A stretch of DNA of 42,503 bases from a virus (Duplodnaviria > Heunggongvirae > Uroviricota > Caudoviricetes), in IMG/VR virus record IMGVR_UViG_3300046047_000272; one strand, given 5' to 3'. Shown in pieces: positions 6,654-37,713 of the stretch (position 1 is the first letter of the stretch; the number at the start of each line of letters is the position of its first letter). Below the pieces are notes generated by a model, which did not search any database, was not told the DNA's origin, and saw only the letters and a program-made list of their open reading frames with translations. Made by a program: the position numbers and the translations under genes.

Positions 6654-7322
6654 ATGAAATGGTCTCTTAGACAATCATCTAAACGTAAGATGTTTGGATT
6701 AAGTAAAGATAATGTTATCAGTGAGTGCCATGCTAAGGATAAGAATCATTGTCCTTATCATACGTCTCATCAAGAAATGACGCAGAAAGAAGCTGATGCG
6801 TATCAAGAGAAAGTGAACGCTAGTCATGATACGAATAAGCATTCATTAAAGATTTCTGCTAATCATCATGAGGCCTCACTGGATAATGGTCAAAAAGTTC
6901 CTTCTAATAAGCAGAGGATTGAGAGTCTGATTCATGATGATGATCCTGATGTCAGAGCGGAAGTTGCTAGAAACGGTATGCTTACGGATAGTGAACAGAT
7001 TATGACGTTAGCTCAAGATTCTGACAAGCGTGTGCGATTAGCTCTCACGAAGAATGCCTACGCGATGTCTCAATATCCTGTTTTCTCATTGCTTCATGAC
7101 GATGATGACGACGTGACGATATCAGCTATCGACGCTGTGCAGTACACGCCAATGGATATGACGAAGTCGCTCATGTATAACAGGGTTCTTCAATATCATC
7201 CTAGTAAGCGTGTTCGTATTCATCTTGCGAAGACGTGTACAGCGAGGTCTACTCTATACGATATGAAGGATGATGATAGCCCTGAAGTCAGAGCAATCAT
7301 TGCCCAACGTCTGAATCATTGA
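6654..7322 (+). CDS. HEAT/LRV-repeat-like protein with an N-terminal Cys/His motif
   Basis: SD GAGGAG before ATG 6654; repeats D(D/S)DxxVRxxxAxN; N-terminal CHAKDKNHCPYHTSH. Confidence 0.75.
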   Translation: MKWSLRQSSKRKMFGLSKDNVISECHAKDKNHCPYHTSHQEMTQKEADAYQEKVNASHDTNKHSLKISANHHEASLDNGQKVPSNKQRIESLIHDDDPDVRAEVARNGMLTDSEQIMTLAQDSDKRVRLALTKNAYAMSQYPVFSLLHDDDDDVTISAIDAVQYTPMDMTKSLMYNRVLQYHPSKRVRIHLAKTCTARSTLYDMKDDDSPEVRAIIAQRLNH

Positions 7323-7567
7323 TGGTTCTATGCAGTATCATAGCTTCATAGGACACTGATCATCATATGATGATCTTCTTAAGTAGCTAAACGAACTTGA
7401 GTATTATCAATAGGTCACGTATCAGTTCCACCATGTCATACTGTGAATAGGGTGGATAGCGGAAGGTGCCGCGAAAAGTCAGAGAGACCTGACACCGCCC
7501 AACTTGGTAATTGACGATTCGTTGATTATCTGTCCTATACCGGATTCTCGATGGTTGATAATTGGTC

Positions 7568-7638
7568 GAATGGATGCTCAATGGTAGGAGTGCTTACAGT
7601 AATGTAAGAGGTCATGGGTTCGAATCCCATGTCATTCA
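7568..7638 (+). ncRNA. degenerate tRNA (Thr-like) with a collapsed anticodon loop
   Basis: GAATGG/TCATTC-A, D loop AATGGTAG, intact T arm; CTTACA-GTAA-TGTAAG hairpin. Confidence 0.55.
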
Positions 7639-7696
7639 CGATGGCGTAGCGTATTGTCTATTTCAAGAATCGACGCCAGTCATCATAGTATTATTT

Positions 7697-34135: not shown

Positions 34136-34401
34136 TAGAATCATATCGGTCATAGGAATCCTAGCACGTCGTACATCTTATTAGTTATGTGACGGTTGCT
34201 AGGATTCTTTCATTGTTAGACCGTTATTCCTCTTGTAGACGCATCTATTTGGTGCATATTTCATCATCTGTCATTTATTATTAGATTACTGATTCAGCGG
34301 TTTGCACACTCATCATACACATCATTTTGACGGGTATAGACCATGTATCAAGAAGCAACAACTCGTTCGCGAGTATATTTTAAGGAGCAAGTATCATAAG
34401 T

Positions 34402-35376
34402 ATGTTAGCATCAAATAATCACGCAAGCCCATCCTCACATCGTCAACCATTAGATGCAGATGACATCACCTTAATGCGTCTTGGTCATAAAGCGTCCGAT
34501 GGATATTTCTTCACGCTAGATGAAGAGCTCTTCCTAGGTAAAATGATTAGATTATCGAGGACTGATTGTTCAGCGAGAGCAACACGAAGAGCCAGTAGAG
34601 CGAAACAATATCTTGCACAGGCTAATCAACGATTAGTCTTTAAAATGGCTAATAAAGTCTATTCGAGTTATCCTAAAGGAACGACTCGTGAGGATGTCGT
34701 GTCCGCAGGAAATCTAGGTCTCAGCAGAGCATTAGAAGATTATGATGATACCATGGGTAATAAATTGTCCACATATGCTACATGGTGGATCAGACATTAT
34801 ATTCAACGATTAGGTCATAAAATCGCTCGCATTGGTACTCTGCCTGATAGCAAGATTGGTATCATATCTGACGTTAAGAAGGAGACACTCCGCATTGAGG
34901 AGGAGGGCCGATCAGTAACGAGTGAGGAAATGAAGACGATTCTCCAAACCCATGGTATTGATGAGGCTGAGTACAATAAGATCATGTCATTCAACAATAC
35001 GCCATTCAGTTTTGATGCGCCAGTATTCAACGATGATTCTACTGAGGCTTCTGAGGTGATGAATTATGATGATACTCGTAATGAAATTATGGGTACGCCA
35101 TTGGAGACGCCTGAGGGATCAGCAATCAAGAATGATACGATCAGCATATTCAATAAGGCCCTATCAGAATTGACGCCACTACAACAATCTCTCATTAACA
35201 TGTCGTATATTGAGGATCGGCCTATGGGCGTTAATGGAGAAATTAAAAGAACGCAAGCGTCAATCCGTAGGACTCTTGGCGTCACGAAATCAGTAGCTGA
35301 AAGAGAATTGCAGAAGGGTCTCGCTCATCTTCGCGAACAAATGACATCATATGGCTATGGACCAAATCAGGAATGA
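34402..35376 (+). CDS. RNA polymerase sigma-70-family factor
   Basis: ANQRLVFKMA, GNLGLSRALEDYD..GNKLSTYATWWIRHYI (region 2); LSELTPLQQSLI..IRRTLGVTK..ELQKGLAHLR (region 4). Confidence 0.9.
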   Translation: MLASNNHASPSSHRQPLDADDITLMRLGHKASDGYFFTLDEELFLGKMIRLSRTDCSARATRRASRAKQYLAQANQRLVFKMANKVYSSYPKGTTREDVVSAGNLGLSRALEDYDDTMGNKLSTYATWWIRHYIQRLGHKIARIGTLPDSKIGIISDVKKETLRIEEEGRSVTSEEMKTILQTHGIDEAEYNKIMSFNNTPFSFDAPVFNDDSTEASEVMNYDDTRNEIMGTPLETPEGSAIKNDTISIFNKALSELTPLQQSLINMSYIEDRPMGVNGEIKRTQASIRRTLGVTKSVAERELQKGLAHLREQMTSYGYGPNQE

Positions 35377-35436
35377 CTCTATACTAACCGTTAGATATTC
35401 AATGACTGATCATAACGATACATTGGGGATGAGTGA

Positions 35437-37713
35437 ATGAGTACATCTGAGGACACGTGGCATATGACGCCTAATGGCCCAACACCATGTCATGCAAAGA
35501 TGAAGGAACGGTGTCCATATCGTGACAGGACACACGGGTCACAAAAGGATCTAGAGCGTCAGTATGAATCGGATATGACCATCGTAAATGATCTTAAGCA
35601 TCGATTGACCACAGCTGCACAGGCTTATTATCAGGGATCTGATACCGATTCACCAATGACCGATGACGAATACGATGCTGGTATCAAATACCTCAAACAA
35701 TTGAATACCTCGTATCGTCTTAATGATCAGGACATTACGAATCTTATCGACGGTAAGGTAGCGGGTGGCACGACAGTTGACGTGAAGAATGATCACAAAG
35801 TCCATCACGACGTACCAATGCTATCATTACGTAAAGCCGATAGCGAGGAGCAAGTGACCAGTTATCTCCAGGATATGGAGACTCAAGGAGCCACCGGATT
35901 CAAATTACAGGCTAAACTTGATGGTATTGCCTGCTCCGCAGAATACGAGCAGGGCCACTTGGAGAGGATGTCTACTCGTGGTAATGGTGCTGATGGTGAG
36001 GATATGTCATATCTCGTGGAGAACCCAGACGTCCAAGTTAAAGGTCTTCCACAACAGTTGAACGGTAAACTGGCGAATGCTGACGTCGAGATTAGAGGAG
36101 AGCTATTCCTTCGACCATCTGAGTTTGATAAGATGAATGCAGCTAAACGAGCCTCAGGAGACGATGAATACAAGAATCCTAGGAACACGAATGCTGGTAT
36201 CGTCAAACGAGCGGCTAATGGCATGCATGGAGAAAAAGCTACTCTGCAATTTGTCATGTACAAGATTGTCGGTCATAACATATCAGAGGAGGACCTAGTC
36301 AGTTCTGGTGTGGCCGAAGTATCTAGAGTGACGAAGGAAGAATGGGATAAAACTGGACTTGCTAGACCGGATCAACTGTCCATATCTATGAAGGATAGAA
36401 CACCTGATGAGGTCACGAATGAGACCATGAATATCATTAATGCCTTCGGACCAGTTCGTGATGAATTAGATTTGCCAACCGATGGTATCGTCATCAAGCC
36501 GATCAATGAGCAAGCAATGGACGATCAGATGGGATCGAACGCTCATCATCCATTATCACAATTAGCCTGGAAGTATCAAGGAGCGAAGGCTCAGGTGAAA
36601 ATTACGGGTGTAAGCTGGACTGTAGGAAAATCAGGTAAGCTGACGCCTACGCTTCATTATGAGCCGACAGCATTCGGAGGATCAATTAACGCGAACGCTA
36701 CTCTGCATAATCCAGCTATCTTAAATGAACTTGGCCTATCCATAGGAGCTGTGGTCGAGGTCGAGAAACGCCATGATATTCTTCCTGAGATTATTCGAGA
36801 ACGACCTATATTCACGCCCAAGGACAGCTCCATCATCAAGCCACCCGAACATTGTCCATATTGTGGATCTTTTATCAGTTCTTCTGATAGATTGTCCTTC
36901 TGTCCTAATGCTAAATGCCCATCACGTGGAGCATACATGTTGAAAGCGGCCGCTAGTAAGGGATCGTTGAATTTTGATGGTATGGGCAATCACCTCATCG
37001 AATCTTTACAGGACAATGGACAGGTGTCAACCATAGCAGATTTCTACGATCTTACTGAGGATTCATTATCAAACACGCCAGTAGGCATAAATGCTGACGG
37101 CAAGCCAAAGATCTTTGGACATACACGAGCTAAGCATGTCATGGATTTTATCACGGCAAGTAAGAAATTGCCATTTCATAAGGTACTACCAAGTCTATCT
37201 ATTAACGATCTCGGTCCTCAAACGGCTAAAGCCATCATTAAGGAATATCCTTCTATTGACGCTATTAGACAAGCGTCAATAGATGATCTTAGCACAATTG
37301 ATGGTATTGGGCCTGAGACGGCACGTAAAGTCAAAGAGGGCATAGATGATCAGTGGGACACCATTGAACGCTTGCGTAAAGCCGGATTGCAATTTGAAGA
37401 GCACGATGATCATGCCATGAATCCTATGCGCGATGACGACCCGGCGGTTAAGGCTGTTAAGGGGAAGTTTTTCAGTATCAGTGGTACTGTGCCATCGGGA
37501 TATGCTAATCGTTCGGAGTGGCAGGAATTCGTTTCAGCTATGGGTGGAACTGCTCAAGGATCACCGAATAAAACCACGGATTATATGATCGGTAATCCAG
37601 ATGATACGTCAAGTAAGATCATCAAAGCTAAGAAATTAGGCGTGACGATCATATCTCCAGATGACTTCATGAGAGCCGTGAGAAATGGTTCTTTCGAAGA
37701 TAACGTGGCGTGA
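35437..37713 (+). CDS. ligA: NAD+-dependent DNA ligase with an N-terminal extension
   Basis: KLDG, TRGNG..GED, EIRGE, NPRN, DGIVIK, AWKY, ATLHN, C4 zinc finger, HhH repeats, BRCT. Confidence 0.95.
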   Translation: MSTSEDTWHMTPNGPTPCHAKMKERCPYRDRTHGSQKDLERQYESDMTIVNDLKHRLTTAAQAYYQGSDTDSPMTDDEYDAGIKYLKQLNTSYRLNDQDITNLIDGKVAGGTTVDVKNDHKVHHDVPMLSLRKADSEEQVTSYLQDMETQGATGFKLQAKLDGIACSAEYEQGHLERMSTRGNGADGEDMSYLVENPDVQVKGLPQQLNGKLANADVEIRGELFLRPSEFDKMNAAKRASGDDEYKNPRNTNAGIVKRAANGMHGEKATLQFVMYKIVGHNISEEDLVSSGVAEVSRVTKEEWDKTGLARPDQLSISMKDRTPDEVTNETMNIINAFGPVRDELDLPTDGIVIKPINEQAMDDQMGSNAHHPLSQLAWKYQGAKAQVKITGVSWTVGKSGKLTPTLHYEPTAFGGSINANATLHNPAILNELGLSIGAVVEVEKRHDILPEIIRERPIFTPKDSSIIKPPEHCPYCGSFISSSDRLSFCPNAKCPSRGAYMLKAAASKGSLNFDGMGNHLIESLQDNGQVSTIADFYDLTEDSLSNTPVGINADGKPKIFGHTRAKHVMDFITASKKLPFHKVLPSLSINDLGPQTAKAIIKEYPSIDAIRQASIDDLSTIDGIGPETARKVKEGIDDQWDTIERLRKAGLQFEEHDDHAMNPMRDDDPAVKAVKGKFFSISGTVPSGYANRSEWQEFVSAMGGTAQGSPNKTTDYMIGNPDDTSSKIIKAKKLGVTIISPDDFMRAVRNGSFEDNVA

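Follow-up and report, generated by a model that had tools for sequence, protein, structure and literature searches.

The stretch of DNA considered here, called the window below, is the whole 42,503-nucleotide stretch from IMG/VR record IMGVR_UViG_3300046047_000272, a virus of the Caudoviricetes. Three genes of the window, all on the + strand and all preceded by Shine-Dalgarno-like sequences, code for proteins that are unrelated to one another except at their starts, where each carries the same small domain built around two Cys and two His residues. The domain is referred to as the handle, the proteins that bear it as tagged proteins, and the parts behind it as cargo. It occurs in two flavours, depending on whether the fourth ligand candidate is a His behind the second Cys (flavour 1) or a His in the first strand (flavour 2). 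The three genes, their handles and the candidate ligands lie as follows.

6654..7322, + strand: gene of a tagged HEAT-repeat protein, from the open reading frame (ORF) and its translation, with Pfam HEAT/HEAT_2 at residues 94-166.
6690..6830, + strand: handle of the HEAT-repeat protein, flavour 1 (residues 1-47 of database record P0013; hidden Markov model (HMM) E 1e-16).
Cys 6726-6728, Cys 6750-6752, His 6759-6761 and His 6768-6770, + strand: ligand candidates of this handle.
33419..34135, + strand: gene of a tagged hypothetical protein of 238 amino acids, starting at ATG 33419 (record P0004).
33428..33562, + strand: handle of the hypothetical protein, flavour 1, a long-loop variant with Cys-x9-Cys-x-His-x2-His.
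Cys 33473-33475, Cys 33503-33505, His 33509-33511 and His 33518-33520, + strand: ligand candidates of this handle.
35437..37713, + strand: gene of a tagged NAD-dependent DNA ligase of 758 amino acids, recognized by its Pfam domain set.
35437..35571, + strand: handle of the ligase, flavour 2 (HMM E 1e-10).
His 35461-35463 (strand 1, W-H-M), Cys 35488-35490, Cys 35512-35514 and His 35533-35535, + strand: ligand candidates of this handle.

An earlier note, made from the sequence, had claimed that one Cys/His motif opens these three unrelated proteins, and all three sites are present where it placed them. The strict pattern C-[HR]-A-K-x3-8-C-x1-2-[YHF]-x1-6-H, run over six frames of the window, finds 3 sites, each near the start of a + strand ORF, whereas 300 block shuffles give a mean of 0.0, which rules out an origin by chance or low complexity. 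The first protein had been labeled an LRV-repeat protein; a repeat protein is there, but Pfam scores HEAT/HEAT_2 instead. Its gene may start at ATG 6654, with a GAGGAG Shine-Dalgarno sequence 8 nt before it, or at ATG 6690, the start used by P0013 (210 amino acids), which is identical to the window from that position on. The hypothetical protein does start at 33419, as had been given. Its C-terminal part has no Pfam or PHROG match, and its handle has the lowest HMM support of the three (E 0.0045). Seven orthologues, on contigs of up to 491 kb, share 42-63% identity with the window copy (P0004 itself is recorded on a 491,046-bp contig), and the motif residues C, R, A, K, C, H, F and H are invariant across them. 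When this family is compared by hhalign with an independent handle profile, A8, made from 59 flavour-1 N-termini, the match has 83% probability and E 9e-6. The ligase is complete and has the LigA domain order: adenylation (PF01653, 3.9e-39), OB (PF03120), HhH (PF14520/PF12826) and BRCT (PF00533). Its handle leads directly into domain Ia, is retained in the orthologue of the related genome G001 described below, and matches A8 with 87% probability (E 4e-6). Here the fourth His is in the first strand, and the second Cys stands in the context C-P-Y-R rather than being followed by His.

The motif noted earlier makes up only the core of a more extensive domain: a beta-hairpin ([YWF]-[GH]-x-x-x-x-G) precedes it and a helix follows it. 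The complete handle has about 47 residues and consists of the beta-hairpin, a Cys-x7(9)-Cys knuckle with the typical sequence C-R-A-K-D-P-x-x-C-[PR]-[YF]-H, a third strand, and the helix. An AlphaFold model had been proposed as a check on the tag, and AlphaFold2 does predict a confident fold. On alignment A6, the mean predicted local distance difference test (pLDDT) score is 87 over 52 residues; on A8, it is 95-97 for residues 1-47, with strands at residues 2-4, 10-12, and 26-28 and the helix at 32-47.

The handle probably binds zinc, as the note had supposed, and the pattern of conservation makes a metal site very probable. Among 97 aligned handles, C13, C21, and H27 are invariant, and an Ala two residues past the first Cys is nearly so. 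Of the 123 representatives, 90 have the fourth His only at the third residue past the second Cys (C-P-Y-H, flavour 1), 28 have it only in the first strand (Y-H-I, flavour 2), 4 have it in both positions, and 1 in neither. A fourth His at one or the other of the two sites in 122 of 123 sequences gives the handle the ligand set of a generic mini-domain with two Cys and two His (CCHH). A ligand that moves yet is never lost is what would be expected of a metal site. The two Cys and two His would hold one structural zinc, with the fourth ligand supplied either by the residue three past the second Cys or by the first strand.

The handle appears to be undescribed in curated resources. It is not covered by any family in Pfam, NCBIfam, or PHROGs, a sequence profile search of the PDB gave a best E of 1.4, and a feature search of the ESM Atlas gave no usable match. 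Structure searches, in which small domains are hard to match, gave E > 8 with Foldseek against the PDB, E > 4 against AFDB clusters, and a best Z of 3.4 in a wide VIA-align search; the best Atlas TM-score was 0.54, to unnamed clusters, one of them purely viral. No description of the motif was found in the literature, including PMC7824862, PMC5512222, and PMC5576092, which does not by itself prove that there is none.

The genome-wide number of handles was counted in G001, a relative from IMG/VR that is a complete contig of 419,707 bp with direct terminal repeats and that was scanned in full. It has nine N-terminal copies, found with a regular expression and then an HMM, and two weaker ones found with a broader HMM. 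The copies per element are 3 in the window, 9-11 in G001, and 2 each in two other contigs. The tagged proteins of G001 include the orthologues of the ligase and of the hypothetical protein, a 1037-amino-acid ResIII/Helicase_C helicase, an NS-type endonuclease, a 593-amino-acid protein with a weak LPD1 match, an 86-amino-acid protein, and others without a family. A profile of the nine copies was also searched against 1.84 billion (1.84e9) representative proteins at E <= 1e-3, giving 125 matches, ten of them at E <= 1e-10. The further N-terminal copies that an HMM count was meant to reveal are therefore found both in G001 and in this larger collection. In 123 of the 125, the match is within the first 26 residues, with the first Cys at residues 12-35, in proteins of 62 to 646 amino acids. 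One of the two exceptions, P0060, is a DarB-like helicase-methylase of 1594 amino acids (with an Eco57I-type methylase), the sole multi-domain protein of the set, and it has an N-terminal copy too. The other, P0071, gives six short, repeated matches and was excluded.

A single paralogous family with drifting C-termini was considered as the source of the tagged proteins and rejected. The C-terminal parts of 106 matches fall into 64 clusters without BLASTP links, distinct Pfam folds are present among them, and one nuclease exists with and without the tag. Pfam recognizes only a few of the cargo parts, namely GmrSD_C (4), HNH (2), RelA_SpoT, HEAT, DUF7448, and Peptidase_M41, and PADLOC adds a PtuB-like HNH and a DEDDh nuclease; PHROGs recognized 0 of 10 tagged proteins tested. 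The nuclease pair is the most direct case. On a second contig of the window's genome, L033, an untagged NS-type endonuclease of 285 amino acids begins with a plain lipoprotein signal, while in its G001 orthologue (67% identity over the enzyme) the handle and about 60 linker residues come before that signal. An orthologous nuclease with and without the handle shows portability directly, and together with at least 64 unlinked C-terminal families behind a strictly N-terminal domain, it bears out the earlier idea of a portable tag. P0127, one more tagged protein from the genome of the window, is encoded on the same contig, so the three copies of the window are not the full set. A gene for a CDF-type (zinc-type) cation efflux protein (L033:4787-5878) is immediately upstream of the P0127 gene, with a RelA_SpoT gene and an NS endonuclease gene close by.

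The elements that carry the handle form a lineage of uncultivated huge phage-like elements, to which it is restricted. For one cluster, the carrier contigs are 326 kb, 246 kb, and 188 kb long and resemble parts of large phage-like genomes; other carrier contigs have runs of same-strand genes, mostly without a Pfam family. A scan of IMG/VR with AKDPx[HKT]CPY returned G001 only, and a search of IMG/VR with the ligase found no relative. Among cultured phages, there was no match to window positions 33000-38000 at the DNA level or to the hypothetical protein by tblastn, and three handles gave nothing usable by tblastn (one match at E 0.3). One tagged protein (P0134) found nothing among plasmids by tblastn, and a word-indexed search with residues 1-60 of P0062 found orthologues only. 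In 185,579 GTDB species genomes, the AKDPx[HKT]CPY pattern has 17 matches, approximately the chance expectation, with one real-looking locus, in a metagenome-assembled genome (MAG). On that Kiritimatiellaeota MAG contig, two adjacent ORFs (L028:4629-6249 and 6098-7877) have the knuckle core internally rather than at the N-terminus (CRAKDPSKCPYHG, CQAQNPDTCQFHH). They adjoin a clustered regularly interspaced short palindromic repeats (CRISPR) array of 27 repeats and are the sole cellular-genome matches. One strongly matching tagged protein, P0018, comes from a 22-kb contig of 61% G+C (L030:1-14692) with CrgA, MoxR/DUF2201, ABC-transporter, MarR, and Usp genes; this more cell-like setting suggests an actinobacterial chromosome or a phage region that closely resembles its host.

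What the handle might bind can be approached through its charge. The mean net charge is +0.5 for the handle and -1.4 for its helix, and a near-neutral domain with an acidic helix points to binding of protein rather than nucleic acid. The Ros/MucR prokaryotic Cys2His2 zinc finger, on the other hand, has a beta-beta-beta-alpha-alpha fold and is basic and DNA binding. The handle is like it in being a small CCHH domain, probably zinc binding, in which three short strands are followed by a helix; it is unlike it in spacing (C-x2-C-x9-H-x3-4-H in Ros), and Ros is absent from the structure matches of the handle, which has no Pfam match either. It is quite unlikely that the handle is a nucleic-acid-binding finger that tethers enzymes to DNA or RNA, or to special structures such as nicks and ends, after the fashion of the finger at the N-terminus of eukaryotic DNA ligase III. 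Such a role would agree with the finding that most of the cargo recognized by family acts on nucleic acids (ligase, superfamily 2 (SF2) helicase, NS, HNH, GmrSD_C, PtuB-like, DEDDh, and methylase) and with a linker behind the handle that is rich in Ser, Lys, and Arg. However, about 90% of the cargo has no nucleic-acid signature, and HEAT repeats, RelA/SpoT, and membrane proteins are also found among it. DNA binding does not need strict N-terminal placement, and no likeness to solved DNA-binding fingers was found.

Within the linker, a short peptide recurs at a nearly constant place. L-[SRK]-K is found 30-44 residues past the second Cys in 58 of 115 proteins, compared with 4.6% of control windows, with L and K each conserved to 90% or more in A8. 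It lies in a part of the model with pLDDT 56-61, that is, in a flexible linker. The peptide belongs mainly to flavour 1, with 58 of 91 members having it versus 7 of 26 in flavour 2; in the HEAT-repeat protein, it is reduced to a degenerate S-L-K (L-K remnant at 6846-6851), and the ligase is without it. In most flavour-1 members, L-x-K may provide an additional contact or mark a site of processing.

If it is a processing site, the handle could be a removable pro-sequence that keeps the enzyme inactive, masks a signal peptide, or sets the lifetime of the protein until a phage or host protease releases it at L-x-K. The nuclease pair can be read in this way, since the handle and linker of the G001 protein precede the lipoprotein-type signal at which the orthologue from the window's genome starts; the position of L-x-K in a flexible linker and the potentially toxic nucleases among several cargo types also agree. 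Such a role is nevertheless improbable. There is no protease candidate and no sign of cleavage, a folded zinc domain would be elaborate for mere masking, and the ligase, which is without the peptide, has a handle that is continuous with domain Ia.

A processing site would also suit a route into the virion. The T4 capsid-targeting sequence, found on the internal proteins and Alt, is an unstructured peptide of about 10 residues that is cut at L/I-x-E. Head and ejection proteins with protease-processed propeptides are found in giant phages such as SPN3US (PMC5694885, PMC7411985, PMC10052503). The handle resembles these signals in being an N-terminal address on unrelated proteins, followed by a short conserved peptide at a set distance, and some of its cargo, like the ejection cargo of T4 and the giant phages, consists of host-modifying and DNA enzymes. 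It is unlike the T4 sequence in that it folds into a Cys/His domain of about 47 residues and goes with L-x-K, and in that a promoter-like word is common to tagged genes and replication genes, while a signal typical of late genes was not found. By analogy with these systems, the handle would bind the scaffold or core of the forming head, the cargo would be packed and ejected with the DNA, and a head protease would cut at L-x-K. The strict N-terminal position on unrelated proteins of one phage, an L-x-K that hardly varies and keeps its distance within a disordered linker, and the confinement to phage-like contigs all fit such a capsid-loading propeptide. So does the virion- or polyvalent-type cargo: the helicase with Eco57I-type methylase (P0060), HNH, GmrSD_C, PtuB-like, and NS nucleases, RelA/SpoT, and the weak LPD1 match.

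Several findings, however, make capsid loading unlikely. Like the ligase, most flavour-2 members are without L-x-K (present in 7 of 26), some members are membrane anchored or have a lipoprotein signal behind the handle, and 0 of the 125 matches are fused to a portal or MuF domain according to Pfam. Eight Pfam models were run on G001 for genes of a head protease, capsid, portal, sheath, or terminase, and they located none. Seven of these (PF05065, PF04860, PF04586, PF03420, PF03237, PF17289, and PF04984, with PF04586 and PF03420 as the protease models) had no match, which does not show that the genes are absent; the assignment to phages comes from IMG/VR. The eighth, PF03354 (TerL_ATPase), had a weak match at G001 119062-121308 that proved to be false, the 749-amino-acid frame being an SbcC/Rad50-like ATPase. 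Since the head genes were not located, loading into the capsid is an unsupported candidate role, and there is no cleavage specificity with which L-x-K could be compared.

The composition of the cargo also calls to mind the polyvalent proteins and MuF-fused polymorphic toxins of phages and conjugative elements (PMC5512222, PMC5576092). These too combine a common carrier with swappable enzymatic parts, and the repertoires overlap (SF2 helicase plus methylase, nucleases, RelA/SpoT-type proteins, and a weak LPD1 match). The handle proteins differ in being separate, mostly single-cargo proteins without MuF or portal fusions, and neither paper mentions a cysteine or knuckle motif of the handle kind.

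The regions ahead of the tagged genes give an indirect hint at timing, beginning with a short word upstream of the ligase.

35390..35396, + strand: promoter-like heptamer GTTAGAT, about 40 nt upstream of the ligase start.

In G001, 5 of the 9 tagged genes have GTTAGAT in the 150 nt upstream, compared with 18 of 424 other genes (Fisher p 3e-5), and the hexamer TTAGAT is upstream of 6 of 9 compared with 34 of 424. Altogether, the heptamer marks 23 of 433 G001 genes (for example, L009:17280-19823, L009:4363-5154, L023:11983-14211, and L015:3173-5635), and the other genes that have it include those for NrdD, an NrdG-like (activase-like) protein, the large subunit of class I ribonucleotide reductase (RNR), a Replicase-family protein, and a T2SSF protein. 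GTTAGAT is therefore a candidate promoter element of one temporal class, a role read from its position and company. Its presence at RNR and replicase genes suggests the replication phase rather than virion assembly, and it speaks against capsid loading, as the word is not common to recognizable late genes.

The presence of the handle on a ligase has parallels elsewhere. Eukaryotic DNA ligase III has an N-terminal zinc finger, and DNA ligase I has an N-terminal PCNA-binding motif; like these, the handle is a small non-catalytic addition at the N-terminus of a ligase that could bring the enzyme to its site of action. The finger of ligase III, however, is of the PARP type, with C-x2-C-x28-30-H-x2-C as opposed to C-x7-C-x2-H-x2-4-H in the handle, there is no sequence or fold match to either eukaryotic addition, and the handle is common to dozens of proteins that are not ligases.

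As to where tagged proteins go, the earlier note had suggested a compartment, a particle, or the conjugation machinery, with a VirD4-like ATPase as receptor, and nothing computed supports any of these. Two ATPases of the window come into question for the last of these.

16234-17478: VirB11/CpaF-like (T2SSE) ATPase.
17586-20243: VirD4/TraG-like coupling ATPase.

That both are encoded in the window, and that an FtsK/SpoIIIE-like gene is near a tagged gene on another contig, would be in keeping with a transfer or secretion signal read by the coupling ATPase and its VirB11/CpaF-like partner. Known type IV substrates carry C-terminal or internal signals and not N-terminal folded domains such as the handle, and the T2SSE and T2SSF genes suit a Tad-type pilus equally well, which makes a transfer signal highly improbable. 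A complex prediction of the handle (P0013 residues 1-62) with the VirD4/TraG-like ATPase (residues 200-885) scored 0.00 and weighs neither way, the fold of the ATPase being uncertain.

We infer, tentatively, that the handle is a cytoplasmic protein-docking piece that brings tagged proteins to one shared partner, a reading that is plausible if still short of probable and that we favour over capsid loading or DNA binding. The handle has been joined to numerous unrelated enzymes, many of them active on DNA, and during the replication phase it would dock this cargo at a common partner in the cytoplasm of the host. Other systems offer a parallel in the short N-terminal motifs by which ligases and nucleases reach a replication hub. 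In a few members, a membrane helix comes directly after the handle and would hold it on the cytoplasmic side. In the window, tagged genes have gyrase, sigma-factor, and ligase genes as neighbours.

Of course, there are also findings that weigh against docking and its timing. The flavours correspond largely to two clades, so the swap of the His may reflect few evolutionary events. In G001, 4 of the 9 tagged genes lack the exact heptamer, as do 2 of the 3 in the window, and it is a promoter-like word whose temporal class is guessed from the functions of neighbouring genes. A conserved peptide at a fixed distance past a strictly N-terminal module also resembles a cleaved propeptide, and part of the cargo (the helicase-methylase P0060, the nucleases, and RelA/SpoT) resembles capsid-carried proteins of other phages. 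In a broader form of the same thought, the handle and L-x-K together would mark proteins for loading by a sorting system peculiar to huge phages. A single receptor, in the assembling head or in a phage-built compartment, would gather dozens of different enzymes, which a protease would release afterwards. This is conceivable, though unlikely.

The rest of the window has features that stand apart from the handle. Its first 13.6 kb hold an array of 44 transfer RNA (tRNA) genes, in which the tagged HEAT-repeat gene (6654-7322) is the sole sizeable ORF over more than 10 kb. Two of the tRNAs, at 5818-5893 and 9401-9475, have TTA and CTA as their anticodons and would decode the stops TAA and TAG; ARAGORN labels them tRNA-Stop and tRNA-Pyl. 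Beyond the array are genes for a Ro60/TROVE-vWA protein, a dUTPase, the T2SSE ATPase, the TraG/VirD4-like ATPase, an AAA ATPase, gyrase B and A, a YdjM-like hydrolase, a sigma factor (34402-35376), the NAD-dependent ligase, TelA, and others. The cluster at 16234-23191 consists of the T2SSE (VirB11/CpaF-like) ATPase, a membrane-anchored TraG/VirD4/FtsK-like ATPase, and a CbbX/EccA-like AAA ATPase in a phage-like genome; with the T2SSF gene of G001 that bears GTTAGAT, it is possibly a Tad-type pilus or a pump for DNA or protein. Downstream of the ligase gene is a small NrdH/glutaredoxin-like ORF (C-P-Q-C) at 37878-38099. Further along, 38873-40862 holds the TelA gene and, before it, a gene that weakly matches the 5-bromo-4-chloroindolyl phosphate hydrolysis protein family.

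The handle marks approximately 2% of the genes in G001 and is near-absent elsewhere, and it groups genes without a known role into one functional class. It is a clean example of a probable zinc site in which the fourth ligand has shifted between two positions, and the N-terminal extension of the phage ligase turns out to be a shared module rather than one specific to ligases. Should the handle serve for docking or as an address, the partner it binds would show how such phages organize replication or load cargo. If it belongs to a sorting system, it would be a general address for cargo that could be programmed, with a structure quite different from the T4 capsid-targeting peptide and from the loading peptides of encapsulins. 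A tag of 47 residues could also serve as a tool for directing proteins. With hundreds of proteins per genome in huge phages being without a known role, the handle offers an experimental entry point to them.

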